From assembly GCA_964583785.1 (NCBI GenBank), contig CAZOXS010000227.1, positions 1 to 53,311 on the forward strand: a stretch of 53,311 nucleotides of DNA. The letters are read 5' to 3'. Below are positions 22,553 through 49,562 of the stretch, in pieces (the first letter of the stretch is position 1; each line of letters opens with the position of its first letter). The stretch is from an uncultured Victivallales bacterium. GTDB taxonomy: Bacteria; Verrucomicrobiota; Kiritimatiellia; UBA8416. Both the position numbers and the translations under genes were made by a program. The notes under the pieces were generated by a model, which was given only the letters and a program-made list of their open reading frames with translations, ran no database searches and was not told the origin of the DNA.

Positions 22553-25500
22553 TTATAACAGACGACTGCGCTTCTGCCCCTCGACTTGTATGTCAAGGCA
22601 CAACCCGCGAAGCTCGTTGATCAGAACACTGAAGGATTCCGGCATCCCCGCGTCCAGCGTGTTGGTTCCCTTCACGATGGACTCGTAGATGCGCGTACGG
22701 CCGCTGACATCGTCGCTCTTGACCGTCAGCAGTTCCTGCAGCGCGAACGCCACCCCGTAGGCCTCCAGCGCCCAGACCTCCATTTCGCCCAGACGCTGCC
22801 CGCCGTACTGCGCCTTGCCGCCCAGCGGTTGCTGCGTCACGAGCGAGTAGGGGCCCACTGCGCGAGCGTGGATCTTGTCGGTCACCAAGTGGTGCAGCTT
22901 CAGGATATAGATCTGCCCAACCACGACGCGCTGATCAAACGGCTCGCCCGTGCGCCCGTCATACAGGACGCTCTTGCCGTCGCGCGGCAACCCGGCCTTC
23001 TCCAGCAGGTCGTCGATCGCGCCCTCCTTGATACCATCAAACACCGGCGTAGCCGCATGCATGCCAAGAATCTTGCACGCTGCGCCCAGATGCGTCTCGA
23101 ACACCTGACCCAGGTTCATGCGCGACGGCACACCCAGCGGGTTGAGCACCACCTCGACCGGCGTCCCGTCCGGCAGGAACGGCATGTCCGCATCCGGCAC
23201 GATCCGGGCCACAACACCCTTGTTGCCATGCCGGCCGGCCAGCTTGTCACCCACCGAGAGCTTCTTCTTGGCCGCGATGTAGACCTTCACCTGCTTGATG
23301 ATACCCGCATCCAGATCGTCACCACTCTCCAGCCGTTCCAGCGAGCGCTCGTGCTCCTCGTCGATCTCGGCGAACTTCGGCTTGTACTCGTTGATGATGG
23401 CGTCGATCTTGATCTGGATCGGGCTGCTCTCGATCGCGATATGCTCGCTGACCGCGGCCAGCTTGCGCAGCAGCGTCTTGGTGATCTTGCGGTTGGCCGG
23501 GATCACAACCTCGTCGGCTTCCACATCGCGGACGTCCAGCGGGATCTTCTCGCCTAGGAGAACATTGCTCAGCGCCTCGGTCAGATCGTTCTGTAATTCC
23601 TGACGCTTCGCCTTGTGGTCATCCTCGATCGCCTTGCGCTGGCGCTTGCGTTCCGCCGGCGTGCTCTCGGCACTCTTCGCCTCCTTGTGCGCCGTGACCT
23701 TGACATCCATCACGATGCCGTAGGTCCCGCTCGGCACGGTCAGCGAGGTGTCGCGCACCTCTGCCGCCTTCTCGCCGAAAATGGCACGCAGCAGGCGCTC
23801 TTCCGGTGCCAGCTCGGTCTCGCTCTTGGGCGTGATCTTGCCGACCAGAATGTCGCCTGGGCGCACTTCCGCACCCGGACGGATCACGCCGTCGGGGCCC
23901 AGGTTGCGCAGCGCCTCCTCGCCGACATTCGGGATGTCCCGCGTGATCTCCTCCGGGCCGAGCTTCGTGTCGCGCGCCCCGACCTCGAATTCCTGGATCT
24001 GGATCGACGTGAAGGTGTCTTCCCGCACCAGCCGCTGGCTGATCAGGATCGCATCCTCGAAATTGTAACCGCACCAGGGCATGAAGGCCACCAGCAGATT
24101 CTTGCCCAGCGCCAGCTCGCCCTGGTCCGTGGCCGGTCCATCCGCCAGCGTATCCCCGGCTTCAACCCGCTGCCCGATCCGCACGATCGGTTTCTGGTTG
24201 ATGCAGGTCCCCGCGTTCGAACGCCGGAATTTCTGTAGGCGGTACTCACGACACGACTCTTCGGAGGTACGCTTGGTCGGCATGCTGCCATCATCGGAAA
24301 CCACAATGCGCGTGGCCGAGACATAAGCAACCGTACCGGCCCGTTCCGCCAGGACCATGACGTGCGAGTCACGCGCCGCGCGCTCCTCCAGCCCCGTCGC
24401 CACGAACGGGCGTTCCACCCGCAGCAGCGGCACGGCCTGCCGCATCATGTTCGCCCCCATCAACGCGCGATTGGCATCGTCATGCTCAAGGAACGGGATC
24501 AGTCCCGCCGCGATACTGATGACCTGCTTGGGCGACACGTCCATGTAGTCGATTTCCGTACCGGGGACTTCCAAAAAGTCGCCACGGTGGCGGACCCAGA
24601 CCAACGGATTATGGAACTTGCCGTCCGCCTCGAGCACGGCATTCGCCTGCGCGATCACGAACCGTTCCTCCTTGTCGGCCGAGAGATACTCTACTTCATC
24701 GGTTACACGGCCGTCCTTGACCTTGCGGTAGGGACTCTCGATAAAACCGAAGTCATTCACGCGGGCATAAATACTGAGCGAGGAGATCAGGCCGATGTTC
24801 GGACCTTCCGGCGTCTCGATCGGACAGATGCGCCCGTAATGACTGCTATGAACGTCGCGAACCTCGAACCCGGCACGCTCGCGGCTCAGGCCGCCCGGTC
24901 CCAACGCGCTGAGACGACGCTTGTGCGCCAGCTCGGAAAGCGGGTTGGTCTGGTCCATGAACTGGCTAAGCTGGCTGCGCCCGAAGAAGTCCTGCACCAC
25001 CGCCGAGAGCGACTTCGAATTGACCAGCCGCTGCGGCGATAGCGTTCCCGTCGTCGGGTCGAAGAGCGTCATCCGCTCGCGGATCAAACGCTCCGTGCGG
25101 GCCAGCCCCATACGGCACTGGTTCTCCATCAGCTCGCCGATCGTGCGGACACGACGGCTGCCGAGATGATCGATATCATCGACATTCTCGGACCCGCGGC
25201 GCACATTGATCAGATGCCGCAGGGCCTCGATCACATCGCGCTCGTCCAGAACGCGCATGTCATTGTCGATCTCGGTATCCAGACCGAGTTTCTGGTTGAT
25301 CTTGTAGCGGCCTACCCGCCCAAGGTCATAGCGGCGCGGATCAAAGAACAACCGCCGCAGAAGCTGCCGGGCGTTCGACGGGGTCGCCGGATCGCCGGGA
25401 CGCAGCTTGTGATAAATATCCTTGAGTGCATCGTCAGACGTGTGCATCGGATCAGCCTTCAGGCTCTTGAGCATCAGTCCTTCATCCCACGACACATCCA

Positions 25501-26317
25501 CCACGGACACCGCCGTGATCCCGGCATCGCGGATCTGCTTGATCGCCGCCTCGGTCAATGGCTCGTACTTGCGTGCCAGTACCGTCTTGGAATCCAGGTC
25601 GATGATATCGTCCTTGAACACCTTGTTGAGCAGGTCATCCTCGCGCATGCGGCTGGTGATCTTGATATCTGCAAAATCGTAGTACAGCCCGAGGATCTCC
25701 TCGTCCGTACCGTATCCCAGCGCCCGCAGAAACGTGGTCGCCAGGAACTTGCGGCGGCGGCGTTTGCGGTCCATGTAGATCCAGATCAGGTCCGACGTGT
25801 CAAACTGGATTTCGATCCAGGAACCACGGTCCGGAATAACCCGGATCGAATAAAGCATCGCCCCGTTCGCATGGACCGACCGCTCGCTGCAGATGCCCGG
25901 CGAACGGTGCAACTGACTAACCACCACCCGCTCCGCGCCATTCACCACGAAGGCACCGGTCTCGGTCATCAAGGGCACATCGCCCATGAAGACGACATCC
26001 TCGACCACCGAGTCCCCATCCTTCAAACGGAACGTGACGTGTAGAGGGGCAGCATAGGTCTGCCCCTCATACACGCACTCCACCGGGTCCAGTTTCGGTT
26101 CGGAAAGCTCGTATTTCGCGAAATCAAGCACATAACGTCCGTCATAGCTCTCGATCGGAAATACTTCCTTGAATATCCCCTGCAGCCCTTGCGCTTTACG
26201 ATCCCCTTCCGCAACATCGCGCTGCAGGAATTCCCGGTAAGAACGGGTCTGCACCTCGATCAGGTTCGGGGGATCAATAATCTCTCGCAGATTTCCAAAG
26301 TTTGTTCTATCTACCAC
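22553..26317 (-). CDS. rpoB: DNA-directed RNA polymerase beta subunit
   Basis: About 1254 aa. Contains [24 protein letters not shown] and [19 protein letters not shown]. The GTG at 26317 lies 5 nt after GAGGTG. The track start (TTG 26341) has no SD. Confidence 0.97.
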
Positions 26318-26355
26318 AAAGGCACCTCGCTGTTTATTCAAAGTCTACCGAATCC

Positions 26356-26365
26356 GGGGGGGGGG
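26356..26365. repeat. G10 (C10 on the coding strand) homopolymer in the rplL-rpoB spacer
   Basis: Direct reading: ...aatccGGGGGGGGGGaaccg... Confidence 0.9.
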
Positions 26366-26387
26366 AACCGATGCTGCCGATGTGCTG

Positions 26388-26783
26388 CTATTTGATCTCG
26401 ACAACAGCACCAGCGGCTTCAAGCTGGGCCTTCATCTCTTCGGCTTCCTTCTTCGAGACGCCTTCCTTGACCGTCTTCGGCGCACCTTCAACCAGATCCT
26501 TCGAATCCTTCAGGCCCAGACCCGTGATCGCACGGACTTCCTTGATGACGCCGATCTTCTTGTCGCCGGCATCCTTGAGGATCACGTCGAACTCGGTCTT
26601 CTCCTCGACCTCTTCCGCCGGACCCGCCGCCGGACCCGCCGCCATCATCGCCATCGGGGCCGCCGCCGTCACGCCCAGGCGCTCCTCGAGTGCCTTGACG
26701 AGCTTGGAAAGCTCCAGCACGCTGATGCCCTCGATCCAATCGATAAATTCCGCCATCTTGCCTTCAACTACGATATCCGACAT
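26388..26783 (-). CDS. rplL: 50S ribosomal protein L7/L12
   Basis: Contains [14 protein letters not shown], an Ala/Pro hinge, and [28 protein letters not shown]. The ATG at 26783 is preceded by AGGAG. Confidence 0.96.
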
Positions 26784-26810
26784 AACCGTTCTCCTTTTTT
26801 GCACCGTCAA

Positions 26811-27332
26811 TCAGGCGGCGTTTTTCTTTTTCTCTTCAATGGCTGCTAACACATACACCAGGCTCGACACCTTTGCGTTCATGACGCCAACCAATTGCGT
26901 CATCGGTGCCTGCACGGTACCAACAAGCTGACCCAGCAGAACCTCGCGCGGCGGCACAGTGGCCATCGCCTCGATATCGGCAGCAGTCAGCAACTGGGTG
27001 TTGAGGCTTCCACCCTTTAAAACCGGCATCTTGTTCTCTTTGATGAAGGAGGCCAGCACCTTGGCCACCGCCGTCACATCACCCGTCCCTGTCACCATGG
27101 CCGTCTTGCCCGTCAGCACAGACGCGAGCTTGGCGCGACGCTCCTCGCCCAGCACCACACCCAGGTATGTGTTCTTCACGACCGTAAGGTGCGCATCGGC
27201 TTCGGCCAGCTTCTCGCGCAGGCCGGTGAACGTAGACACCTTCATACCGCTGAAATCGGCCAGCAGCAGATACTCCGAACCCGAAACCGCTTCCGCGATC
27301 TCTTTTACAATTGCTTCTTTTTCAGGTCTCAT
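26811..27332 (-). CDS. rplJ: 50S ribosomal protein L10
   Basis: 173 aa. Located upstream of rplL. GGAG precedes the ATG. Confidence 0.94.
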   Translation of the reverse strand: MRPEKEAIVKEIAEAVSGSEYLLLADFSGMKVSTFTGLREKLAEADAHLTVVKNTYLGVVLGEERRAKLASVLTGKTAMVTGTGDVTAVAKVLASFIKENKMPVLKGGSLNTQLLTAADIEAMATVPPREVLLGQLVGTVQAPMTQLVGVMNAKVSSLVYVLAAIEEKKKNAA

Positions 27333-27349
27333 TGAAATTCTCCGCTGCT

Positions 27350-28033
27350 CTAGTCTCTGACATTCACGCGCAGACCAACCCCCATCGTGGAGGCGATCGA
27401 ACAGGTCTTGATGTAAATACCCTTGGCACCCGACGGCTTAGCCGACCGCACCGAGCTGATGATGCTCGTGATATTCTCCACCAGCTTGTCGGCGTCAAAC
27501 GAGAGTTTGCCCGCCGGGGCATTGATATTGCCGTTCTTGTCCATGCGGAACTCAACCCGGCCACCCTTGGCCGCCTGCACTGCGGCCGCCGTGTCATCGC
27601 TGACCGTGCCGGTCTTGGGATTCGGCATCAACCCGCGCGGTCCCAGCACGCGGCCCAGCTTGCGCACCTCCAGCATCGCCTCGGGCGTCGCGATCGCCAC
27701 GTCGAAATCGGTGAAGCCAGCCTTGACCTTCTCGATCATGTCCTCGTTGCCGACAAATTCGGCACCGGCCGCACGCGCGGCATCCGCCGCCGCCCCGGCC
27801 GCGAAAACAAGCACCCGAACGTTTTTGCCCGTGCCATGCGGCAAGGAACAGGTGCTGCGGATCGCGTTTTCCGATTTCTTCGGGTCGATACCCATCTTGA
27901 AACAGAGCTCAACCGTCTCGTCGAACGAGGCCGCCGGATTCTCCTTGAGAAACGCAACCGCCTCCGATAATTCCATCACGGCCTTCGGCGCCTTCGCCTT
28001 GATCCCGCGATATTTCTTGCCATGCTTGGGCAT
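27350..28033 (-). CDS. rplA: 50S ribosomal protein L1
   Basis: MPKHGKKYRG...; contains GPRGLMPNPKTGTV. Confidence 0.97.
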   Translation of the reverse strand: MPKHGKKYRGIKAKAPKAVMELSEAVAFLKENPAASFDETVELCFKMGIDPKKSENAIRSTCSLPHGTGKNVRVLVFAAGAAADAARAAGAEFVGNEDMIEKVKAGFTDFDVAIATPEAMLEVRKLGRVLGPRGLMPNPKTGTVSDDTAAAVQAAKGGRVEFRMDKNGNINAPAGKLSFDADKLVENITSIISSVRSAKPSGAKGIYIKTCSIASTMGVGLRVNVRD

Positions 28034-28150
28034 GCTCTTACCTTCCTGCTAGTGAGGTCTTCACGACTTTGCCGAAAACCCCGGTCAACGTCCACCTGTC
28101 ACAAAAAGCCGCACTCACGGCCCCGCCGGCGGACTCCCGTCCAGAAAAAA

Positions 28151-28576
28151 TCAGCCGCTGATCTCGATCCCCATGCTGCGGGCGGTACCCTCGATGATCC
28201 GCATCCCCGCCTCTTCATCGTTGGCGTTGATGTCCGCCATTTTGGTACGCACGATCTCCAACACTTGCTCGCGCGTCACCGTGCCGACCTTGTCGCGATG
28301 CGGCACAGCGGACCCCTTGGCCAGCCCGGCCGCCCGCTTCAGCAGCGAGGCCGCCGGTGGGCTCTTGGTGATGAAGGTGAAGGAGCGGTCCGCGTAGACC
28401 GAGATCACAACCGGGATCACCAGCCCCGCCTTTTCCTGGGTGCGTGCGTTGAATGTCTTGCAGAATTCCATGATGTTCACACCATGCTGACCGAGCGCAG
28501 GCCCCACTGGCGGTGCCGGATTGGCCGCCCCCGCCGGAATCTGCAACTTGATCTGACCGATGACTTTCTTTGCCAT
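28151..28576 (-). CDS. rplK: 50S ribosomal protein L11
   Basis: [40 protein letters not shown]. Confidence 0.98.
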
Positions 28577-28635
28577 CTTTCTCCTCGCTCTCTGTTATCG
28601 TTAATAAGGGCCCGCAGCATCAACGCCGGCAGTGC

Positions 28636-29184
28636 CTACACGTGCTCAACCTGCCAGTATTCCAGTTCCACCGGCGCGGACCGCCCGAAAATCGCGACCG
28701 AGACCTTCAGCTTGCCGCGGCCCGGATCAACCTCTTCCACCACCCCGTTGAAGTTGAGGAAGGGACCATCCGTGATCTTGATCGTCTCGCCTGCCTCGAA
28801 GGCGACTTTCGGGGCGACCTTTTCCCTCTTCTCTTCGACCTGATTCAGGATACTGTCAACTTCCGACGGCATCAACGGCACCGGTTTCTCGCCGCCGACA
28901 AAGCCGATCACGCCGGTCGTCTCCTTGATGAAGGTCCAGGCACGCTCGATCATGTTGCGCTCATCATCATAGAGCGCCATGTTCACCAGCACATAACCGG
29001 GAAAGAACTTGCGCGTCGTCGTCGTCTTCACCCCGCGACGGACCTCCGAGACCTTCTCGGTCGGGATAATGACTTCCCCGAGCAGATCCCCGACCTCTTC
29101 CAGCTGGAGACGCCGCTTGATGCCTTCCTGCACCTTGGCTTCCTGCCCCGTGAGCGTGTGTATCACAAACCACTGCTTATTCAT
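28636..29184 (-). CDS. nusG: Transcription termination/antitermination factor NusG
   Basis: WFVIHTLTGQEAKV (NGN domain), FPGYVLV, and a C-terminal KOW motif (GETIKITDGPF). Confidence 0.96.
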   Translation of the reverse strand: MNKQWFVIHTLTGQEAKVQEGIKRRLQLEEVGDLLGEVIIPTEKVSEVRRGVKTTTTRKFFPGYVLVNMALYDDERNMIERAWTFIKETTGVIGFVGGEKPVPLMPSEVDSILNQVEEKREKVAPKVAFEAGETIKITDGPFLNFNGVVEEVDPGRGKLKVSVAIFGRSAPVELEYWQVEHV

Positions 29185-29195
29185 GTTCGCCTCTT

Positions 29196-29468
29196 TTAGC
29201 CTTGCGGCACCAATAACCGCAGAAAAACAGCCACGATCTTATCACTGAGACCAACATAAATCCCCAGCGCGAAGACACCGGCAATGACAATCACCGTATG
29301 CATCACCAACGTCCGCCGGTCCGGCCATGTCGAGCGTTTGACTTCCAGGACCGTTTCCTCGACAAACCGCGTAATGCGCTTGAGTAACGGCTTTTCCGTA
29401 GATATCTCGTTTTTCAAATCGAACCACCCTTCACAACCCAAGTCTCCCGCCAGGCGTTTCATTATCAT
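29196..29468 (-). CDS. secE: Preprotein translocase subunit SecE
   Basis: Contains ETVLEVKRSTWPDRRTL followed by a single TM helix. Start at ATG 29468 (or 29462). The track ORF to 29576 would read through tRNA-Trp. Confidence 0.85.
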   Translation of the reverse strand: MIMKRLAGDLGCEGWFDLKNEISTEKPLLKRITRFVEETVLEVKRSTWPDRRTLVMHTVIVIAGVFALGIYVGLSDKIVAVFLRLLVPQG

Positions 29469-29474
29469 ACCGCC

Positions 29475-29551
29475 TGGCAGGCCAGGAGGGAATCGAACCC
29501 CCAACCCCCGGTTTTGGAGACCGGTGCTCTGCCAAATTGAGCTACTGGCCT
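29475..29551 (-). tRNA. tRNA-Trp (anticodon CCA), CCA end encoded
   Basis: Hand-folded cloverleaf: acceptor AGGCCAG/CTGGCCT, anticodon stem CCGGT/ACCGG, loop CUCCAAA, T-loop TTCGATT. Confidence 0.93.
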
Positions 29552-29579
29552 GTAACGTCGGCAAATCGACTGGCAACCC

Positions 29580-29732
29580 CTACTTGATCTCGCGATGCGG
29601 GGTCCGTTTCTTATCAAATCGGCAGAACTTGACCAGCTCCAGGCGTCCCGGTGTATTGGTCTTGTTCTTCGTCGTCGTGTAGTTGCGCCGCTTGCATTCC
29701 GTGCAGGCTAACGTGATCAGTTCTCTCGGCAT
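29580..29732 (-). CDS. rpmG: 50S ribosomal protein L33
   Basis: Hand translation gives [50 protein letters not shown]. It is not in the ORF track. Confidence 0.93.
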
Positions 29733-29760
29733 CGCATACCACCCCGGTATTGACAGTACA

Positions 29761-29791
29761 GCCCCGCCGCAGTGTTCTCATGCGGCGGGGC
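29761..29791 (-). other. GC-rich stem-loop between tuf and rpmG (attenuator or processing signal?)
   Basis: GCCCCGCCGCA (29761-29771) and TGCGGCGGGGC (29781-29791) form a perfect 11-bp stem with a 9-nt loop. No U-tract follows on the minus strand. Confidence 0.45.
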
Positions 29792-29816
29792 ATATAACAT
29801 CAAGGATTTCTTATAC

Positions 29817-31025
<1,209 letters not shown>

Positions 31026-31117
31026 GATGTCTCCTCCGTTATCCTTACCTTGTTTTGCGATACCTGCGCTTAACGCGACCTGTGTTTGTTCCTGTCCTCG
31101 TCAATAATCCCAGCATT

Positions 31118-31193
31118 TGGAGCCCATGAGCGGGATCGAACCGCTGACCTCGTCCTTACCAAGGACGTGCTCTGCCAACTGAGCTACATGGGC
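31118..31193 (-). tRNA. tRNA-Thr (anticodon GGT), CCA end encoded
   Basis: Cloverleaf: acceptor GCCCATG/CATGGGC, D arm GCTC-AGTTGGCA-GAGC, anticodon stem CGTCC/GGACG with loop TTGGTAA, T arm AGCGG-TTCGATC-CCGCT. Confidence 0.94.
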
Positions 31194-31339
31194 CTCGATC
31201 CCGAATCCGCCGGCAACAAACAACAAGACCGCAGTGCGTCCGTTCACTCCGGCAGCACTCCGTCCTGCATGATTTGCGACCCCGCCCCCCTGATCTCGCC
31301 TTACCCAAACCTGAAACTTTATGAAAAAATGCGACCACT

Positions 31340-32675: not shown

Positions 32676-32760
32676 TTTCTCTCCTTGCACCTACCTATAA
32701 CTTGGCCATTTTGTCTCTCTTTGGACACTACTATTGCCTGCCTATTTCGGATTACGAGAT

Positions 32761-32817
32761 CGGCGACGAGAACGGGTTACGATTCAAATGCCAACTCGTT
32801 TGCCGTTCTCGTCGCCG
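32761..32817. repeat. Perfect 15-bp inverted repeat (hairpin, 27-nt loop)
   Basis: CGGCGACGAGAACGG (32761-32775) and CCGTTCTCGTCGCCG (32803-32817), followed by a direct re-iteration, CGTTCTCGT. Confidence 0.85.
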
Positions 32818-32836
32818 TTCTCGTTCACTGATCCCC

Positions 32837-32963
32837 TGTAGCCCACTCGCGCCGCGAGTGCGGCTGGCAGTGTTGTAAGCGAACGGTTGGCTGGCGCAAG
32901 CACAGTGATTTGCGTAACCACACGCGCATCCCGCTTCCTCAGTCGCGGCGCGACTGGGCTACA
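32837..32963. repeat. REPIN-like element copy 1 (two inverted GTAG-palindrome REPs, 127 nt)
   Basis: The 5' end is TGTAGCCCACTCGCGCCGCGAGTGCGG and the 3' end is CCTCAGTCGCGGCGCGACTGGGCTACA. A second copy of identical length lies at 49412-49538. Confidence 0.8.
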
Positions 32964-41575: not shown

Positions 41576-42028
41576 ATGAGTCCACAGGACGCGGTCCGCA
41601 CCACCATCGGTGAGGATGTCGAGATCACCGGGAACATCAAATGCGAAAGCGGGATCCAGATCAACGGCAAGCTTAACGGCGACCTGACCTGCGCTAGCCA
41701 GGCGCAGATCGGTTCCAGTTGCTCCGTCAAGGGGAACCTGTCGGTCGAGACGGTCTCGATCATGGGACAGGTCAACGGCAACATCACCGCCAAGGACAAG
41801 ATCGAACTCAAATCGACCGCCAAGCTGCACGGCGATATCCGTGCCCGCCGCCTGACGGTCGAGGACGGCGTGACGTTTGTCGGCAAGGTCGAGGTCAATC
41901 CGGGCGGCGCGGGTGGCTCGAAGCCGCAGGAGCCAAGGCAGCCGGTGGTGGCTGATCTGGATGACGAAGACGAGCCGGTGAAGGAGACGCCGCCCGAACC
42001 CCAGGGCAAGGGTATCTTCCGCCGCTAG
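41576..42028 (+). CDS. Bactofilin (polymer-forming cytoskeletal protein, DUF583)
   Basis: Repetitive beta-helix segments (VEITGNIKCESGIQINGKLNGDL...IMGQVNGNI...LHGDIRARRLTVEDGVTFVGKV) with a Pro/acidic tail. Confidence 0.88.
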   Translation: MSPQDAVRTTIGEDVEITGNIKCESGIQINGKLNGDLTCASQAQIGSSCSVKGNLSVETVSIMGQVNGNITAKDKIELKSTAKLHGDIRARRLTVEDGVTFVGKVEVNPGGAGGSKPQEPRQPVVADLDDEDEPVKETPPEPQGKGIFRR

Positions 42029-42124
42029 CCAGCCGTCCGCGTGCGGTCGTCTCGTCGACCGCGCAATCCGTTCCGTCCGGGCTGCCGTATCCACGACAGC
42101 CGGAAACCGATTCCGGAGCTGGCC

Positions 42125-42856
42125 ATGCCGCGTCCTGATCATAATGGGATGATAGACGGGTATTCCTCGGTGCAGGCGCTTCGCCGTTTAGACGGTAAAG
42201 CCTCGCCCCGAGCGAAGCCGCCGGAGGAGTCTGCCCTCGACGAGGGCGCGGCCGCGCCGCCGAAGCCGGCCGGCTTCGGGCATACCGCCCTGCCAACCCG
42301 CCATGAGCTGATCTGCTACTCCTGCGGCTATGCCTTCGTGGTGACTGGTCGGCTCGACAAGGTCATCTGCCCGAAGTGTAGGACCCAGCTCGAGACCGGG
42401 GACAAGCACATCGACGGGGCCTGGAGCGGAAACCTGAAAACGGTCGGTCGCGTCTACATCAATAGCGGGGCGACGGTCACGTCCTCCAGCATCGTGGCCA
42501 TGGATATCCGCGTGGCTGGTATCTGCCGAAACACGCGCCTGGAACCGACGCGCCACCTCGAACTCGACAGCGGCGCACAAGTCGAGATCGACAAGCTCGG
42601 CAAGCAACGGCTCGTGATCATCGAGGATGCAAAGCTGACCTTCGACGAGCCCCTGCGCTGTCGCTCGCTCGATATCCACGGCGAACTCCAGGCCGATGCG
42701 CGCCCGTCGGAACGCGCCATTCTGCATCCGACCGGTATGTTCCGCGGCACACTGCATGCGCCGCGCCTGATCGTGCACGAGGGCGCGGGCCTGAAGGCCC
42801 ACCTGCACATCGCCCCGCCGAAACCGAATCCGGTCCCCGAAACCGCCCCGCCCTAG
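42125..42856 (+). CDS. Zinc-ribbon + bactofilin-like beta-helix protein
   Basis: CYSCG..(14)..CPKC, followed by bactofilin-like repeats (GNLKTVGRVYINSGATV..., HGELQADA..., LHAPRLIVHEGAGLKAHL). The ATG at 42125 is preceded by GGAG. Confidence 0.7.
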   Translation: MPRPDHNGMIDGYSSVQALRRLDGKASPRAKPPEESALDEGAAAPPKPAGFGHTALPTRHELICYSCGYAFVVTGRLDKVICPKCRTQLETGDKHIDGAWSGNLKTVGRVYINSGATVTSSSIVAMDIRVAGICRNTRLEPTRHLELDSGAQVEIDKLGKQRLVIIEDAKLTFDEPLRCRSLDIHGELQADARPSERAILHPTGMFRGTLHAPRLIVHEGAGLKAHLHIAPPKPNPVPETAPP

Positions 42857-42990
42857 CAGGACGTTGCAGGGATAAAGCCAAACAGGCGTAGCTTCGATTT
42901 CATCAGGGAACCCAAGACCGGCAGATCTTTCGGATAGACCGAGATCAGCCGTTTTCCCTCCTGCTGATAAAGGATCTGCTTCTTGTACAT
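42853..42990 (-). CDS. Hypothetical 45-aa ORF filling the convergent spacer downstream of the helicase gene
   Basis: Hand translation gives MYKKQILYQQEGKRLISVYPKDLPVLGSLMKSKLRLFGFIPATSC*. The ATG lies 2 nt after the helicase TGA. There is no recognisable family and no SD. Confidence 0.2.
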   Translation of the reverse strand: MYKKQILYQQEGKRLISVYPKDLPVLGSLMKSKLRLFGFIPATSC

Positions 42991-42992
42991 GC

Positions 42993-45791
42993 TCAAATTC
43001 GCCGCCCGCAGTGCGCCAGCACCCGCAGAATAGCATCCAGCACGGCATCCAGATGCGTGCCGATATCCTCGGCCAGGAAGCGCAGGACAAAATAGCCGTT
43101 TTCCTGTAGCAGCGCATCCTTGCGCCGGTCGCGCCGGTAAGCGTCGGGATCAGACAAATGCTGCGGACCGTCAATCTCGATGGCCAGCCGGGCGGTTCGG
43201 CAACATAAATCAACTTCCATCCGGCTGCGGTCGGTAAAGGGGATTGGCAGCAGATCGTTCAGCCGGAATTTTCCAGCGGTTCCCGGAAGCGTCTCCAGAC
43301 GTCGGAACAGGAACGCCTCTGTCGCGCTGCGTGCCCGATCTTCCCCCTCGGCATCTGCCTGCAGCTTACGCGTGGCATGAACAAACAGGTTGCCCAGATC
43401 CGTATCAACCCCGTCGCGGATCAACCGCTGCACCGTGGCCGCATAATCCCGCTTCCATTCCGGATCAACCGGCAGCGGCACTTCAACGGGCCAGCCTGGG
43501 ACCGCACTGGCCGGCAGCAGGATCTGATAACCAATCCCGTCGTACCCCTTGCAACGCCGATCAAACATCCGCGCCAGCATCGGTTCGTTCAAATCCGCAT
43601 AGTCATAAATCCGCACTTCACGCTTGAGGTCGTGCAACCGGTGCAGCCGTCCGGCATATTGCGCGATGGTCCCGCGCCAGGAGATGGGGAGCGTCAGGAA
43701 CAGGGTATCCAGCCGCGCATCGTCGAACCCCTCGCCCAGATAGCTTCCCGTGGCCAGCAGCACGCGTCCCTCGTCCTCGGGAATAGCGGCCAGCCGGGCG
43801 ATCACCTCCCGGAAGGATTTGGGCTTCATGCCGCCTTGCAGAACCAGCAGGTTTGGAATTGCCGACGATAGACGCTCCGACAAGATGGCAAGATGCTCCG
43901 TTCGCTCGGTTAGCACGACCGGCGAACGCCCTTCCTTGACCGCCGCGATCACATCTGCGCAGATCTGCTCATTACGGCTCTTGTCGGCAATCAAGGCGGC
44001 GTAAAGCGCCTGAAACGCCTGACGCTTGTCACCGCCCGTGTCTTGATGCAACCGAAAGGCCGTCGGTCTGACAATCACGCTGTGCGTGAACGGCCTGGCG
44101 GCGGCCTGCGCCTTCGCATTCACGCGATACCGGATCGGACCGCATTGCATGAAAATGATCGGATGATGACCGTCCTTGCGTGTCACGGTGGCGGAAAGAC
44201 CGGTCACATAACGCGCTTTCGCCTGACGGGCCACCTGTTCGAAGCTGCTGGCGGATAGATGATGGCATTCATCAACAACCAGATGCCCGAATCCGCCAAC
44301 CCGATCATCAACGACTCCCTGCCGAACCAGGCTTTGTATGAGTGCCACATCGAGGATCCCGGTTGCCTTTTTCCTGCCGCCGCCGATCCGGCCAATAGCC
44401 TTTGCGGGGATTTCAAGAAAGGTGGACAGCCGCTCAATCCATTGCTCCAGCAATTGCTTGCGATGCACCAGGATCAGCGTGTTGACGCCCCGCTGGGCGA
44501 TCAACCACGCGGCAATCACGGTCTTGCCGAATGCCGTCGTTGCCGACAGCACGCCCGTGTCATGCCTCAGCAAGGAATCCGCCGCGAGCTGCTGCTCCGG
44601 GCGCAACCGGCCATGGAAGACAAACTCGCCATCCAAGCCTTGAAAGCGCTCATCATGAATTCGCGGCTTTATGCGCTGTGTCGTCAACAGCGCCAGCAGT
44701 TCGTCCAGGCAGCCACGCGGCAATCCGATATACTGTTTCAAATCTTCCGCACAGGCAATAATGCGCGGTTTGTCAAAGGTCGGAAAGCGCATCGCCTGGG
44801 CCTTGTAGAACTCCGGGTTCTGGAAGGCCGCCAGCCGGATGAGCCGATTGCGCAGACCGGGAGGCAATGCTTCTTTCGGAACATAAATCTGGTTGCCGAG
44901 CGTAATATCAAGGGATTTTGGCAAAGACCCTGCGATGGGCGGATCGGTTGTTCGCCGCGAAGGCGATGCGCCCCAAGGAGCGACGGCATGCTCGTCATCA
45001 CTGATCGGATAACGAACCCCGGTAACGTCCTGATGCCGCTCGGCTTCGGTGACCACCGACTCAATCTCGGACCGACTCAGTCGCCCGACGCCCGCCAGAT
45101 ACGCCCATTGGTCGTCATAGGGGTTCAGGGCTTCATCCAGGAACACGCTGTTTCCGGACTGGCGCGGCTTCTTCTGCATGGGGAGCGCGATCAGGTTTCC
45201 AAATCCGCCTTTTGGCAAGGTGTCCTGATTGGGGAAAAAGCGGTCATACGAATCGAGTCCGGTTTCCGGCCGGCACTCCATGGTTACCGTCAGGATATGC
45301 GCGCCGAGCTTCCTGGCCAGGACCGCCGGGACCGGCTCCTTGAAAAAGAGCCACAGGTGCGCGCCGTTACCGGAACGCGAGCGTTCGACGGATGCCGGAA
45401 GCTGCATCTGACGGCAGGTCTCCCGGACGACTCTCACGTCGTCGATCCAGGCCTCCTTGTCAAAATCCATCGCCAGAAACCAGCAGGTCTCATCCAGCAG
45501 CATCGGATAAACACCGGCGGTAAAGTCCCGCCCGGCGGCATCCTCGCCGCGAAGGTGCTGCCCGATGACGACATCGGAGACGGGCAGCAACCGTCGGTTC
45601 GGACACTCCGCGCATTTCACGCGCCGCTTGTCGCACACATCCCGCACCCACTCATTCGCACAGGCCGGACTGTAACCGGATTTCCCGGTCTTGCGACTCT
45701 CGAAACGCTGCGGATACACATCCTCGCGACCGCGGAAAATGCTGCGGAACAAGGCGATCTTGTCAGCGGACGATGAGAATTTATTGATCAT
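42993..45791 (-). CDS. Primase-polymerase (AEP)-like / SF2 DExH helicase / DUF559 (Vsr-like PD-(D/E)xK) nuclease fusion protein
   Basis: 932 aa. The N-terminus has FLAMDFD, SGNGAHLWLFF and GGFGNLIALP. The helicase has TAFGKT (Walker A), VVDECHH, SAT and QYAGRLHR. The C-terminus has EVDLCC..LAIEIDGPQH..RRDRRKDALLQENGYFVLRF. Confidence 0.85.
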   Translation of the reverse strand: MINKFSSSADKIALFRSIFRGREDVYPQRFESRKTGKSGYSPACANEWVRDVCDKRRVKCAECPNRRLLPVSDVVIGQHLRGEDAAGRDFTAGVYPMLLDETCWFLAMDFDKEAWIDDVRVVRETCRQMQLPASVERSRSGNGAHLWLFFKEPVPAVLARKLGAHILTVTMECRPETGLDSYDRFFPNQDTLPKGGFGNLIALPMQKKPRQSGNSVFLDEALNPYDDQWAYLAGVGRLSRSEIESVVTEAERHQDVTGVRYPISDDEHAVAPWGASPSRRTTDPPIAGSLPKSLDITLGNQIYVPKEALPPGLRNRLIRLAAFQNPEFYKAQAMRFPTFDKPRIIACAEDLKQYIGLPRGCLDELLALLTTQRIKPRIHDERFQGLDGEFVFHGRLRPEQQLAADSLLRHDTGVLSATTAFGKTVIAAWLIAQRGVNTLILVHRKQLLEQWIERLSTFLEIPAKAIGRIGGGRKKATGILDVALIQSLVRQGVVDDRVGGFGHLVVDECHHLSASSFEQVARQAKARYVTGLSATVTRKDGHHPIIFMQCGPIRYRVNAKAQAAARPFTHSVIVRPTAFRLHQDTGGDKRQAFQALYAALIADKSRNEQICADVIAAVKEGRSPVVLTERTEHLAILSERLSSAIPNLLVLQGGMKPKSFREVIARLAAIPEDEGRVLLATGSYLGEGFDDARLDTLFLTLPISWRGTIAQYAGRLHRLHDLKREVRIYDYADLNEPMLARMFDRRCKGYDGIGYQILLPASAVPGWPVEVPLPVDPEWKRDYAATVQRLIRDGVDTDLGNLFVHATRKLQADAEGEDRARSATEAFLFRRLETLPGTAGKFRLNDLLPIPFTDRSRMEVDLCCRTARLAIEIDGPQHLSDPDAYRRDRRKDALLQENGYFVLRFLAEDIGTHLDAVLDAILRVLAHCGRRI

Positions 45792-46606
45792 GCGGTTTCA
45801 TCCATCTCCGTGAGATGCTTCCAGTAGCGGGCGGGCATGAACTGGCGCTGCAGGGCGGGGTTGGTGCGGGTCTCGATGGCCACGGTGCGATGGAACGTCT
45901 TCCATAACATCTGGCTGCGGGCCTCGGCGGCCGACGGCTCGTCATCCGCCAGGCACTGAGTGAGCAGCGTGCCGGTGAGCAGGTCGCCGTCCGGGTTTTC
46001 GGCATTCAGTCGCTTCCCATCCCAGGTGGCGGCCTGCTGCCGACGGCAATCGAGAATCACCCAGCGTTGACTAGCCAGTCGGCGGCGGAAGTGAAACGCC
46101 AGCGGCAGGGTGATGTCGTAGTCCGGCTCGTAGAGGGCGATGAAGCGGCCTGACTTGAACTCCTGGAACCGTAGCAATCCCTTGAACCGGTGGATCTCCA
46201 GCGATACTTTACGGGCGTGGCGATGGACGAAGATCACGTCCGGATCCGCATGCGCTTGCACGATGCACGCCCCATGCAGCACCGCTTTGCGAGCATAGCC
46301 CAGCAGATGCGGTTCCAGCCCGTCCGGCATGGCCGTCAATGCCCGCAGCAGGGTGTGGACCACATCGCGTGACGCCTTGGCGGTAATGTAATTGAGAAAC
46401 CGCTCGGCACGCGCGGGATCAGACTCAACCGTTTCGCGGGCATCGGCAAAGAGGTCGCGCACCGCATTCGCCCGCGTGAACCGGACCGGCGGCTGCTCGA
46501 GCCGTTTGTAGGCCTCGGCCACGGCACACAGGCAGCCGGTAGAACTGCCATCATGCACCCATTCCACCGGTGGCAAATCAGAACGCGAATGTAAGTTGCT
46601 CGGCAT
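45788..46606 (-). CDS. DUF4130-like 'probable DNA metabolism protein' (radical-SAM-linked), no UDG domain
   Basis: WVHDGSSTGCLCAVAEAYK..., ...HRFKGLLRF.E......ALYEPDYDI and RWVILD match my recollection of the TIGR03915/DUF4130 family. The stop overlaps the helicase ATG (ATGA). The start is ATG 46606 or GTG 46567. Confidence 0.65.
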   Translation of the reverse strand: MPSNLHSRSDLPPVEWVHDGSSTGCLCAVAEAYKRLEQPPVRFTRANAVRDLFADARETVESDPARAERFLNYITAKASRDVVHTLLRALTAMPDGLEPHLLGYARKAVLHGACIVQAHADPDVIFVHRHARKVSLEIHRFKGLLRFQEFKSGRFIALYEPDYDITLPLAFHFRRRLASQRWVILDCRRQQAATWDGKRLNAENPDGDLLTGTLLTQCLADDEPSAAEARSQMLWKTFHRTVAIETRTNPALQRQFMPARYWKHLTEMDETA

Positions 46607-47813
46607 TGGCGGGCTGCGCCTCCTTGGTGAGTACCCGGCGTACGCTTTCGACGCTTTGCCGGCGGAATCCCGGCGAGCGCCCCGCCGCCGTGATGAAGAA
46701 AGCCGCCCGCTTGAGCACAACCCCAAGCTTCTGTAGATCGGCCAGGCAGAGCTTCTGGAAGCGGCGGGCGCTGACAATCCGGCGGGCGGAGGTCACACCG
46801 ATTCCCGGCACGCGCAGAATATGGGCATATTCGGCACGGTTGATGTCGACCGGAAAGAAATGATAGTTGCGGATCGCCCACATCGCCTTGGGATCGAGCA
46901 CGATGTCCAGGTCGGGCTGCGCCTCGGAGAGCAGTTCATCGGCCCGGTAGCCGTAGTTGCGCAGCAGCCAGTCGGCTTGGTAAAGACGGTGCTCGCGCAG
47001 CAGCGGCGGCATCTCGACCGGCTGGAGCCGGCTGTCGTAGCGGTTGACCGGGATAAACGCCGAGTAGTAGACGCGGCTGAGGTCGTAGTGCTGGTAGAGC
47101 GACTCGCCCAGCCGCACGATCTGTAGGTCCGACTCCGGGCTGGCGCCGACAATGAGCTGCGTGCTTTGCCCACCGGGAGCGAACGCGGGTGCCCGCCGGT
47201 CGCGGCGGCGTTCGGCCCGGCTTTCACGGATGCTTGTTCCCAGGAAAGCCATCGGGGTGATGATATCGGCCTTGGTCTTTTCCGGCGCCAGCTGCTTGAG
47301 CGACGCCTCCGACGGCAGCTCGATATTGACGCTCACCCGGTCGGCATAAAGCCCCGCCTGGCGCATCAGCTCCAGACTGGCACCCGGAATGGCCTTCAGA
47401 TGGATATAGCCGCCGAAGCCCTCCTCCTGGCGCAACCGGCGAGCGATGGCGACCATCCGGTCCATCACGCGGTCAGGCTCGCCAAAGACCGCCGAGCTCA
47501 GGAACAGGCCTTCGATGTAGTTGCGCCGGTAGAAATCCATCGTCAGCGTCACCACTTCCGCGACGCTGAACGTGGCGCGCGGACGATCGTTCCCGCGACG
47601 GTTGATGCAGTAGGCGCAATCGTAAAGGCAGACATTCGAGAGCAGGATCTTGAGCAGCGAGACGCAGCGCCCGTCGCTCGACCAGCTATGACAGATGCCG
47701 GAGGTGGACGTCGATCCGGTTTTCGCGCCCTTGCGGTTGCTGCCGCTCGACGCGCAGGACGCATCGTATTTCGCGGCATCGGTCAGGATCGCCAGTTTTT
47801 CTTCAAGCGTCAT
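46578..47813 (-). CDS. Putative DNA modification/repair radical-SAM protein with HhH motif
   Basis: MTLEEKLAILTDAAKYDASCASSG, CX3CX2C (CLYDCAYC), and C-terminal ILRVPGIGVTSARRIV (HhH). ATG at 47813. The 82-codon upstream extension in the track is rejected. Confidence 0.85.
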   Translation of the reverse strand: MTLEEKLAILTDAAKYDASCASSGSNRKGAKTGSTSTSGICHSWSSDGRCVSLLKILLSNVCLYDCAYCINRRGNDRPRATFSVAEVVTLTMDFYRRNYIEGLFLSSAVFGEPDRVMDRMVAIARRLRQEEGFGGYIHLKAIPGASLELMRQAGLYADRVSVNIELPSEASLKQLAPEKTKADIITPMAFLGTSIRESRAERRRDRRAPAFAPGGQSTQLIVGASPESDLQIVRLGESLYQHYDLSRVYYSAFIPVNRYDSRLQPVEMPPLLREHRLYQADWLLRNYGYRADELLSEAQPDLDIVLDPKAMWAIRNYHFFPVDINRAEYAHILRVPGIGVTSARRIVSARRFQKLCLADLQKLGVVLKRAAFFITAAGRSPGFRRQSVESVRRVLTKEAQPANAEQLTFAF

Positions 47814-49416: not shown

Positions 49417-49538
49417 CCCGCTCGCGCCGCGAGCGCGGCTTCCGTGTTGTAAGTGAACGGTTGATCGGCGTACGCACGGGAATTCGCGTAACCGCACACA
49501 CATCCCCGCTGCCTCAGTGGCGGCGCACCTGGGCTACA
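49412..49538. repeat. REPIN-like element copy 2 (127 nt), overlapping the purF stop codon
   Basis: TGTAGCCCGCTCGCGCCGCGAGCGCGG ... CCTCAGTGGCGGCGCACCTGGGCTACA. By hand alignment there are about 24 differences from copy 1 over 127 nt. Confidence 0.8.
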
Positions 49539-49562
49539 AAAATCCGTTCAAGCGTATCCTCT

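Follow-up and report, generated by a model that had tools for sequence, protein, structure and literature searches.

An ORF with AEP, SF2 helicase, and DUF559 domains

The window, by which we mean the whole stretch of 53,311 nucleotides analyzed, contains on its minus strand an ORF of 932 codons plus stop that begins with ATG, ends in a stop codon at 42993-42995, and is preceded by an in-frame stop three codons 5' of the ATG (ORF list and translation). The initial annotation had given this 932-aa ORF, without its strand, as a single chain of primase, helicase, and nuclease. The ORF is real, and profile, sequence, and fold comparisons agree on all three domain calls (Table 1), with matches far beyond chance (Pfam AEP-TOTE, E 2.3e-97; ResIII, 1.7e-20; DUF559, 2.1e-12) and catalytic residues in all three modules that are invariant among 34 homologues. 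The motif strings it had listed were likewise located in the protein, namely FLAMDFD (residues 105-111), SGNGAHLWLFF (140-150), GGFGNLIALP (195-204), and CDKRRVKCAEC (53-63) in the first domain, ATTAFGKT (417-424), VVDECHH (505-511), SAT (533-535, inside GLSATVTRKDG at 531-541), and QYAGRLHR (711-718) in the second, and EVDL (859-862), LAIEIDGPQH (869-878), and RRDRRKDALLQENGYFVLRF (886-905) in the third.

A 100% identical protein, P0001, is present in JGI/ENA metagenomes. The gene is under strong purifying selection, with codon identity of 92-95% at positions 1 and 2 and of 71-73% at the third position. Its GC content (~0.60, against 0.60-0.65 in the flanks) is uninformative on foreign origin, and a promoter and terminator scan of 42.6-48.1 kb gave nothing exceeding shuffled expectation. 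AF2 modeled the full-length chain poorly (pLDDT 61, RecA1 region unmodelled), and the arrangement of the domains is not readable from it.

Upstream lie a DUF4130 gene and a radical-SAM gene, the start of the latter being assigned from homologue alignments and sequence. Both in the window and in contigs from its population, these three genes follow one another on the same strand, 10 nt and -4 nt apart, and the TGA of the DUF4130 gene overlaps the ATG of the fusion gene in an ATGA junction (gene calls on sister contigs). The radical-SAM protein is identical on seven contigs. The wider surroundings in the window are housekeeping genes: icd, argC, two bactofilins, and purF.

Table 1 Features of the fusion gene and of the two genes upstream of it
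Feature	Position	Strand	Evidence
Whole gene, AEP primase-polymerase/SF2 helicase/DUF559 nuclease fusion, 932 aa	42993..45791	-	ORF; Pfam, NCBIfam, and PADLOC matches
AEP (Prim-Pol) catalytic domain, aa 10-245	45057..45764	-	PF22548, PADLOC, CAPP alignment, Foldseek
Four cysteines, C44, C53, C60, C63	45603..45662	-	Invariant in 34 sequences; predicted zinc module
Alpha/beta linker domain, aa 250-394, near-invariant motif RNRLLRLAAFQNPEFYKAQAMR	44610..45044	-	Alignments, invariant residues
SF2 helicase core, aa 395-745	43557..44609	-	Pfam, NCBIfam, PDB, Foldseek
Connector, aa 746-819, proline/tryptophan-rich then helical	43335..43556	-	Conserved W767, P768, W779, Y783
DUF559/Vsr-like PD-(D/E)xK endonuclease domain, aa 820-932	42996..43334	-	Pfam, PDB, AF2, Foldseek
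DUF4130/TIGR03915 gene, 259 aa from GTG 46567	45788..46567	-	DUF4130 E 2e-41; TIGR03915 E 7e-58
SplB-like "DNA modification/repair" radical-SAM gene, TIGR03916, 411 aa, ATG 47813	46578..47813	-	E 4e-180

Primase-polymerase domain

The N-terminal domain matches PF22548 (AEP-TOTE) with 325.6 bits against a cut-off of 27 (E 2.3e-97) over profile positions 1-229 of 230, and the PADLOC PrimPol model PDLC01465 with E 6e-91. It also aligns with the CAPP structure 7nqd (E 2e-9), and Foldseek places it on CAPP Prim-Pol with a target-normalised TM of 0.63-0.68 and probability 1.0, although the AF2 confidence in this region is moderate (pLDDT about 70-87). AEP enzymes are recognized by motif I hhhDhD/E, motif II sxH, and motif III hD/E (PMC5862659). 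Here these motifs are D109/D111, S140..H145, and D183, which do not vary among 34 sequences and line up with CAPP. A check for a non-AEP N terminus or misaligned catalytic residues thus returned an AEP fold with aligned, invariant residues; by motifs and modeled fold, the domain belongs to the AEP superfamily and is predicted to have primase activity. The initial annotation had read GGFGNLIALP as the third AEP motif. While all three of its motif strings are present, this one is a conserved family motif further downstream. For the catalytic motif III, D183 (SYDR) is the most likely candidate; in the alignment it falls on the acidic residue of "VEIFP" of the solved CAPP Prim-Pol.

The four conserved cysteines lie in an insertion of approximately aa 33-90 that the CAPP alignment skips, that is, one absent from CAPP, and that falls within the AEP-TOTE profile, at its positions 24-77. 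AF2 models this insertion poorly. C44, C53, C60, and C63 are predicted to form a zinc-binding module.

Helicase core, linker, and connector

The middle of the protein matches ResIII (E 1.7e-20) and DEAD (6e-11) in Pfam and XPB/Rad25 in the PDB (E 1e-15), while Foldseek retrieves XPB-Bax1 and UvsW with E 1e-10 to 3e-9, bearing out the SF2 helicase core proposed initially. The NCBIfam matches to XPB, RadD, and Hef are all under cut-off. Motifs I (K423/T424), II (D507/E508/H510), III (S533-T535), and VI (Q711/R715/R718) are invariant or nearly so. Of the helicase residues singled out for mutation in the initial annotation, K423 is right, but its "E507" is not, residue 507 being an aspartate and the Walker-B glutamate being E508. 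With motifs I, II, III, and VI intact, the core is XPB-like and predicted to be active. Orthology with XPB was rejected, as the XPB equivalog model gave 57.2 bits against a cut-off of 610 and R538-K539-D540 (RKD) stands in place of the XPB "RED" motif.

The linker before the core aligns in one stretch with aa 2-385 across hundreds of 50%-identity representatives. Foldseek alignments to XPB span about 500 columns, a length that suggests a possible correspondence between the linker and the N-terminal DNA-binding domain of XPB/UvsW. Neither the linker (aa 250-399) nor the connector (aa 745-860) matched a Pfam family even at E 10, and AF2 confidence is low for aa 758-813.

Nuclease domain

The C-terminal domain matches PF04480 (E 2.1e-12, 47.3 bits against a cut-off of 20.6) and PDB entry 3hrl (E 5e-5). 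E859, D861, E872, D874, and H878 do not vary among homologues, nor do E825 and R886-D892, and the first five line up with VDF...EADGGQH of 3hrl. The AF2 model of this domain has a pLDDT of 86.8, and its best Foldseek matches are 3hrl (TM 0.80), I-Bth0305I, PvuRts1I, Escherichia coli Vsr (1vsr), and TnsA, with E-values of only 2e-3 to 8e-2. The DUF559 domain was also checked for loss of PD-(D/E)xK geometry, and a Vsr-like fold with invariant acidic and histidine residues was found. Thus, the domain is a predicted Vsr-like PD-(D/E)xK nuclease.

A large and already named family

The initial annotation had regarded the fusion as unusual. This view does not hold, since at least 8000 protein clusters match it, the same three-domain architecture is present in 120 of the 120 matches listed among them, and NCBI and JGI already name the family. 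The TOTE primase label that it had offered is correct: the Pfam family is AEP-TOTE, and NCBI uses [quoted passage not shown] The gene is therefore a member of a large, already named, and widespread family. A literature search found no experimental paper on any member of this architecture.

The fusion is spread over at least 12 phyla, and 76 of 82 relatives are full length (at least 850 aa) with no internal stops. Median identity across phyla in the DUF559 clade is 66%, and this ORF is as conserved as core informational proteins. The nearest relative comes from the same phylum in 50 of 65 cases, and cross-phylum nearest neighbors reach 77-81% identity. In the wider family, the C-terminal nuclease is replaced by PLD or missing. 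Nuclease-less relatives were found on 121 plasmids, 50 of them conjugative, near tra genes or near genes that typify transfer regions (DUF736, ArdC-like, ParB, and strawberry notch); on 88 plasmids, relatives span aa 2 to ~760 at 33-60% identity. Similarly, 876 of 5426 E. coli genomes carry a nuclease-less relative, which in the E. coli O157:H7 genome examined lies inside an integrase island. Phage genomes gave matches to the helicase part only and no full-length relative.

Genomic context of the relatives

The initial annotation had linked the gene to the radical-SAM pair. The genes do abut and overlap here, but the idea of a functional unit does not hold up: the pair is missing from all 82 loci of fusion-gene relatives, including those at 83-90% identity, and the fusion gene from all 80 radical-SAM loci. 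DUF4130 is retained beside the radical-SAM gene in 73 of those 80. Moreover, in the related MAG UBA6015 the pair and the fusion gene, at 84% and 68% identity respectively, are on separate contigs. A functional unit was rejected on this reciprocal sampling, and with zero co-occurrence in both directions the adjacency is lineage specific and gives no evidence of a shared system. The position behind the pair is a local accident in this population.

No other partner emerged. When flanking ORFs were clustered all against all and a Pfam census was taken, no neighbor family recurred in more than 6 of 80 loci. Relatives at 83-90% identity occupy unrelated contexts, adjoining ParB, ParE, PIN, and CopG-type genes, and most have an upstream gap of ~140 nt. 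DNA similarity between copies ceases 0-18 nt from the ORF ends. Flanks of 60 nt upstream and 90 nt downstream were taken from 61-65 loci, and the 45 of each that were inspected showed no conserved motifs, terminal repeats, or att sites. The UBA6015 copy lies 1.8 kb past tRNA-Thr, and in relative L002 a Y-family polymerase gene follows. The lack of shared neighbors, the unrelated contexts, the similarity that stops at the ORF ends, the cross-phylum relatives, and the tRNA-Thr site together indicate that this is most likely a solitary, horizontally moving accessory gene.

The nearest neighbors of the relatives include AbiEii/AbiEi, BrxA, MzaA, and PDC-S01, and about 14 of 130 match PADLOC models. 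This count of defense-type neighbors does not clearly exceed that in a crude control set, in which the matches are mostly to generic HTH and UvrD-type models.

Comparison with known systems

The TOTE system is defined by TPR, OB, TBP, and Effector (PMC12458937, citing Aravind et al. 2022). AEP-TOTE (PF22548) proteins share the architecture of AEP plus ResIII/DEAD (plus DUF559), with the cysteine-rich insertion included in the match, and the fused DUF559 nuclease corresponds to the effector module. A scan of 19 ORFs from 31.4 to 53.1 kb gave no matches to TPR, S1, or CSD, and TPR-OB is absent from the 25 most frequent families among 130 nearest neighbors of 80 relatives. Likewise, no TBP-like gene was matched by Pfam in the same ORFs or neighbor families, where a divergent fold could escape Pfam. 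A canonical TOTE operon was rejected, as its TPR-OB and TBP genes were found neither near the gene nor near the 80 relatives; what is held in common is the domain family and not the operon.

The nearest solved structure to the AEP domain is CAPP_A (PDB 7nqd/7nqe/7nqf/7p9j), with which the DxD, sxH, and acidic third motifs align. CAPP, which acts as a DNA primase-polymerase, is linked to CRISPR adaptation; a CAPP-helicase type has been described, and helicase-fused non-CRISPR homologues are the most prevalent (PMC8211822). Compared with CAPP, the fusion protein has gained a four-cysteine insertion as well as XPB-like helicase and nuclease domains. There are no cas domains among the neighbors and no CRISPR array in the window, and NF040561 scores 75.6 against a cut-off of 200. 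A CRISPR-associated CAPP was rejected on these grounds.

Archaeal XPB-Bax1, bacterial RadD, and T4 UvsW are the best sequence or fold matches of the helicase core. XPB-Bax1 shares the logic of an XPB-type motor paired with a nuclease, whereas here the nuclease is fused, Vsr-like rather than Bax1-like, and joined by a Prim-Pol. The "hhe" protein of Gao and colleagues from 2020 is reportedly another helicase-Vsr nuclease acting in defense. The YprA-Vsr fusions of ARMADA are also alike in joining an SF2 helicase to a C-terminal, predicted active Vsr-type nuclease in a defense context (PMC12458937). However, these proteins have a YprA/DEAH helicase instead of an XPB-like one and lack AEP, and ARMADA is a multigene system. 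Plasmid and genomic-island AEP-helicase proteins, such as those of pSinB (WP_199566044) and E. coli O157 (WP_000233452), share the AEP, linker, and helicase modules, with 47-60% identity from aa 2 to ~760. These plasmid and island proteins are without DUF559 and occur in conjugative-transfer or integrase-island contexts.

Discussion

Our best explanation, which we consider about as probable as not, is that the gene encodes an intact AEP-TOTE primase-helicase of the DUF559/Vsr clade, a mobile stand-alone enzyme that would nick, unwind, and prime DNA in genetic conflict and not a component of a repair pair. The XPB-like motor and its N-terminal linker domain would load on duplex or branched DNA and open it, the Vsr-like domain would nick one strand, and the Prim-Pol with its zinc module would start or extend DNA synthesis along the template thus exposed. 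The sequence of these three steps is purely inferred. Such an enzyme may serve as an effector in conflict between cell and mobile DNA, in defense or in competition between elements, and not in housekeeping repair. The conflict or mobile character is suggested by the nuclease swaps, the plasmid and E. coli island relatives, the AbiEii/AbiEi-type neighbors, the conflict naming by Pfam and NCBI, and the kinship with CAPP. Independence from the radical-SAM pair follows from its reciprocal absence (0/82 and 0/80) and the separate contigs of UBA6015. Counted against the conflict reading are the plain housekeeping context in the window, the defense neighbors that do not clearly exceed the crude control, the median cross-phylum identity of 66%, which is high for an immune gene, and the resemblance of the helicase and nuclease to repair enzymes (XPB, RadD, and Vsr).

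It is also conceivable, but rather unlikely, that the protein serves the replication or establishment of mobile elements by priming complementary-strand or element replication, with the chromosomal DUF559 copies as remnants or cargo of integrated elements. Several of the 88 plasmids place their relatives in a transfer or leading-type region (traA, traCDG, DUF736, ArdC-like, ParB, and strawberry notch), and the E. coli loci examined place them beside int, alpA, yfjI, and gp2. In addition, CAPP_A homologues that are not CRISPR associated and have a helicase are typically those of mobile elements (PMC8211822), for which AEP-helicase fusions are classic replicases (PMC5862659). However, DUF559 is on none of the plasmid copies, the DUF559 clade is without integrase, relaxase, or common flanking DNA, and the surroundings in the window are housekeeping genes. 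The helicase, moreover, is SF2 XPB-like and not of the SF3/D5 or DnaB type usual for replicases.

We consider it very unlikely that the protein is a repair or damage-tolerance enzyme working with the radical-SAM/DUF4130 pair, the pair processing a lesion while the fusion protein nicks, unwinds, and resynthesizes. Radical-SAM/DUF4130 is a predicted SOS-linked repair module (PMC3765255), XPB, RadD, UvsW, and Vsr are repair proteins, and a Y-family polymerase gene accompanies relative L002; the three genes are contiguous here, and no promoter-like site was found within them. As a conserved system, though, this arrangement is largely refuted by the zero reciprocal co-occurrence over 162 comparison loci, the separate contigs in UBA6015, the closest genome with both, and the upstream gap of ~140 nt that most relatives have of their own; by eye, no LexA-type box was obvious ahead of the radical-SAM gene or ahead of two copies from gammaproteobacteria.

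A selfish gene that mobilizes itself, its nuclease cutting a target into which the helicase and Prim-Pol copy the gene (homing-like or self-priming transposition), would explain the ORF-sized units of transfer, with similarity ending 0-18 nt from the start and stop codons in unrelated contexts, no recombinase or repeats found alongside, a nuclease fold matching not only Vsr but also TnsA and the homing endonuclease I-Bth0305I, and a flat identity structure across phyla, but it is highly improbable given that third-position identity of 0.59-0.73 may mean that neutral flanks have decayed past detection, that multicopy genomes, target-site duplications, and conserved insertion sites were not seen, and that 50 of 65 nearest relatives are from the same phylum.

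Overall, the striking fusion belongs to a catalogued and widespread family for which our literature search found no experimental characterization, and its eye-catching operon with the radical-SAM pair should not be taken as a new system. More speculatively, and in our opinion quite improbably, the DUF559 clade may be a one-protein system that first nicks, next unwinds, and then primes de novo or extends, either as a single-gene immune effector that uses priming or as a self-copying gene. The self-copying option would explain how so well conserved a gene, a bare 2.8-kb ORF, comes to lie in unrelated contexts and why similarity between copies goes no further than the start and stop codons. If the proposed nick-unwind-prime mechanism is right, incision, unwinding, and primer synthesis in one polypeptide would provide a compact model of Prim-Pol use outside replication, and the protein would be a candidate single-gene defense or DNA-manipulation tool.

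The fusion protein combines three conserved catalytic modules

The open reading frame that the initial annotation had assigned to the fusion gene was recovered at full length, and translation placed every quoted motif of its product at the residue number given; its strand, which had been left out, is minus. The start is well defined because an in-frame stop lies three codons 5' of the ATG. A plus-strand ORF (44259-45776) and a minus-strand ORF (42188-43213) were rejected as separate genes, both being shadow frames of the fusion gene.

Genes of the fusion-gene run and Pfam domains of the fusion protein
Feature	Position	Strand	Remark
Fusion gene	42993-45791	minus	932-codon ORF
DUF4130/TIGR03915 gene	45788-46567	minus	same strand as fusion gene
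SplB-like radical-SAM gene, TIGR03916	46578-47813	minus	same strand as fusion gene
AEP-TOTE	aa 10-245		Pfam, E 2.3e-97
ResIII/DEAD	aa 395-538		Pfam, E 1.7e-20
DUF559	aa 860-925		Pfam, E 2.1e-12

The three domain calls (AEP-like primase, helicase, and Vsr-like DUF559) proved correct by Pfam, solved-structure, and Foldseek matches, as did the suggested "TOTE primase" label: the protein belongs both to the AEP superfamily and to the Pfam family AEP-TOTE. Moreover, residues 8-323 match the CRISPR-associated "PrimPol" model of PADLOC (E 6e-91), and below-threshold NCBIfam matches include CAPP (CRISPR-associated Prim-Pol)-type PrimPol, XPB, RadD, and Hef. The matches among solved structures were CAPP 7nqd/7nqf for the AEP domain queried alone (E 2e-9), archaeal XPB/Rad25 for the helicase (E 1e-15), and the DUF559 protein 3hrl for the C terminus (E 5e-5). 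AF2 modeled the full chain poorly (pLDDT 61), yet the Foldseek matches of this model include XPB-Bax1 complexes, T4 UvsW, and the Prim-Pol domain of CAPP, the last with a target-normalized TM of 0.63-0.68. Residues 800-932, modeled separately, gave a confident structure (pLDDT 86.8) that retrieved the Vsr-like PD-(D/E)xK nucleases 3hrl (TM 0.80), homing endonuclease I-Bth0305I, PvuRts1I, E. coli Vsr, and TnsA with modest E-values (2e-3 to 8e-2). The C-terminal domain is a canonical DUF559/Vsr-like nuclease by prediction. Judged from its sequence, the helicase is an SF2, XPB-like enzyme that is not orthologous to XPB: it scores 57 bits with the NCBIfam XPB model, whose cut-off is 610.

Across 34 aligned homologues (68-100% identical), all three modules have invariant residues: D109, D111, S140, H145, and D183 of the AEP domain together with cysteines C44, C53, C60, and C63; K423/T424, D507/E508/H510, and Q711/R715/R718 of the helicase; and E859, D861, E872, D874, and H878 of the nuclease. 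R538-K539-D540, directly after helicase motif III, is also invariant and presumably occupies the position of the RED motif in XPB proteins. We found neither a non-AEP fold or degenerate catalytic residues nor a DUF559 domain lacking PD-(D/E)xK geometry, the outcomes that the initial annotation had named as counting against it. Two of its residue assignments needed revision. The Walker-B glutamate, proposed as E507, is E508, residue 507 being an aspartate, and GGFGNLIALP, taken for the catalytic AEP motif III, is a conserved family motif, whereas alignment to the solved CAPP Prim-Pol puts the acidic motif-III residue at D183 in SYDR. The Pfam search found no family for the conserved stretches at residues 250-394 and 746-819.

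The fusion is a widespread architecture outside the canonical systems

Searching 5.8 billion clustered proteins yielded at least 8000 matching candidates. Among the matches listed, 120 of 120 were 917-991 aa long, at least 68% identical, and built from the same three Pfam domains; their sources were Lentisphaerae, Verrucomicrobiota, Planctomycetota, Thermodesulfobacteriota, Accumulibacter, and others. In a set of one genome per GTDB species, six peptide patterns led to at least 541 confirmed relatives. Of the clusters built at 50% identity, 1698 match residues 1-390 alone (AEP and linker) with E <=1e-30. Relatives are named [quoted passage not shown] or "DEAD/DEAH box helicase family protein" at NCBI and [quoted passage not shown] at JGI. 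These counts and existing names therefore describe a catalogued, widespread architecture and not the oddity that had been supposed. The family is known and computationally described but experimentally untouched, our literature search having found no experiment on any member.

With neither cas genes nor a CRISPR array present, the protein does not qualify as a strict CAPP; it also has a four-cysteine insertion, part of the AEP-TOTE profile, that CAPP lacks. Likewise, it falls outside the canonical TOTE system, defined as TPR, OB, TBP, Effector (PMC12458937), since TPR, OB, and TBP are absent both here and near its relatives. TPR, CSD/S1, and TBP families were not among the 25 most frequent Pfam families in the 130 ORFs nearest to relatives at 80 loci.

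Relatives exchange modules and reside on mobile elements

Other 50%-identity clusters hold nuclease-less AEP-helicase proteins of ~800 aa. Among three further relatives (P0136, P0226, and P0130) are examples in which a C-terminal PLD-type nuclease replaces DUF559 and one in which a TraG-type P-loop stands in place of the SF2 helicase; such swapping of nuclease and helicase is typical of conflict systems. Relatives occur on 121 plasmids, 50 of them conjugative; on 88 plasmids they cover residues 2 to ~760, and a DUF559 domain was found on none of the 121. The pSinB relative has traA/traCDG, DUF736, an ArdC-like metallopeptidase, and ParB as neighbors, and that on pDSHI03 follows a strawberry-notch gene. 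The one O157:H7 genome examined carries a nuclease-less relative (L167, 10001-12361) in an integrase island beside ycdU, where alpA-like, yfjI, and inovirus-type gp2 genes precede it. Phage genomes gave matches to the helicase part only. Non-CRISPR CAPP_A homologues mostly carry a helicase domain and reside in mobile elements (PMC8211822). Beside these plasmid and island homes, a function in element replication or establishment is an unlikely but serious alternative to the conflict role that module swapping favors.

The radical-SAM/DUF4130 pair is a local neighbor

In the window, the radical-SAM, DUF4130, and fusion genes are contiguous on one strand, with a 10-nt gap at the first junction, an ATGA overlap at the second, and no promoter-like site found inside the run. 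Ten same-population contigs (97.8-100% identical) overlap this region, and all six that reach beyond the DUF4130 end run on into the fusion gene. Co-expression in this organism is plausible. Outside this population, however, neither gene of the pair was found near relatives of the fusion gene at 80 GTDB loci (60-83% identical) or near 89-90% identical proteins on two metagenomic contigs, and none of 80 loci of radical-SAM relatives, 73 of which have DUF4130 directly downstream, contains the fusion gene. In the close relative UBA6015 (RpoB stretch 93% identical in protein; rpoB-ribosomal protein-nusG-secE-tRNA-Trp-tuf-tRNA-Thr block 80.6% identical in DNA, window 22997-31266 versus L006:14547-22773), the pair (84% identical) and the fusion gene (68% identical) lie on different contigs, the latter as a divergent copy 1.8 kb beyond tRNA-Thr. 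The evidence does not support a conserved system of three genes. The pair is already known as a predicted SOS-linked module for repair or mutagenesis (PMC3765255; 2026 preprint); joint repair with the fusion protein, consistent with the local gene order but not with the other loci, is improbable.

The site beyond tRNA-Thr in UBA6015 is a typical integration hot spot. HTH regulator models (PADLOC HTH_VI, capH) match 10-15 of the 129 nearest neighbors of the pair (L083-L162), which hints at a dedicated regulator. In one strain, represented among the same-population contigs by L174 (1-1042) and 97.8% identical across radical-SAM, DUF4130, fusion gene, and bactofilin region, similarity stops exactly at the radical-SAM start codon (47813), with panC upstream in place of the window's divergent purF; the break marks either a rearrangement at the promoter of the operon or a chimeric assembly.

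The gene is conserved, solitary, and horizontally shuffled

Clustering of all flanking ORFs at 80 loci of relatives found no neighbor family in more than six. Pfam matches among the nearest 130 ORFs were AbiEii (six), DUF4143/AAA_14 (four), PIN (two), and IS200 (two), with single matches including XhoI, YhcG, RmuC, and a Y-family polymerase. About 14 of the 130 gave defense-type PADLOC matches, which we treat as weak evidence because the control set, the pair's neighbors, also gave many, mostly generic, matches. The 89-90% identical copies adjoin ParB-like, ParE, PIN, and CopG-type genes, and the gene's own context in the window is housekeeping, with icd, a permease, GH28, a PAS-SpoIIE phosphatase, argC, two bactofilins, purF, and oxidoreductases.

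Compared with copies in unrelated contexts (80-87% DNA identity), similarity starts 0-16 nt before the ATG and stops 0-18 nt past the stop codon, with no shared flanking motif visible around the copies. Identity is 92-95% at codon positions 1 and 2 versus 71-73% at position 3, indicating strong purifying selection. The 76 full-length members compared, drawn from at least 12 phyla, share 54-91% pairwise identity (median 66%), with medians of 68% within and 66% between phyla; for 50 of 65 members the nearest neighbor comes from their own phylum, and cross-phylum pairs reach 77-81%. A self-mobilizing gene, a reading that these bare boundaries would fit, is the least probable and very doubtful.

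Two tandem bactofilin genes (41576-42028 and 42041-42856, plus) converge on the fusion-gene 3' end. A 45-aa ORF (MYKKQILYQQEGKRLISVYPKDL...; 42855-42990, minus), gene-called on three of four sister contigs, begins 2 nt past the fusion-gene stop and could be the remnant of a disrupted gene. A ~125-nt repeat with terminal inverted repeats (GTAGCCCA...TGGGCTAC) occurs at 32842-32963 and 49417-49542, with a third copy, ~85% identical, in a related metagenomic contig (L082:5323-5448); it resembles a MITE/REP-type element and matched nothing in Rfam. A second short inverted-repeat-rich stretch (32739-32836) is 86-88% identical to L083:2497-2585 on the UBA6015 pair contig.

A conflict role is the most likely reading

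Our analysis shows a solitary and horizontally shuffled gene whose single product chain holds three catalytic modules, all intact and under selection; the initial interpretation stands for its domains but not for rarity or the radical-SAM partnership. Nuclease swapping, mobile-element relatives, variable contexts, and family naming favor conflict with mobile DNA, the leading reading, at roughly even odds. An XPB-like motor would open DNA, the Vsr-like domain would nick it, and the Prim-Pol might prime or extend on the exposed strand. One feature is puzzling, namely a flat, highly conserved clade whose bare ORF appears in unrelated places, and it leaves a slight chance that something more interesting is at work. 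A nuclease-less relative is carried by 876 of the 5426 complete genomes of E. coli and thus offers an experimentally tractable homologue; PGAP gives the O157:H7 copy the TOTE name.
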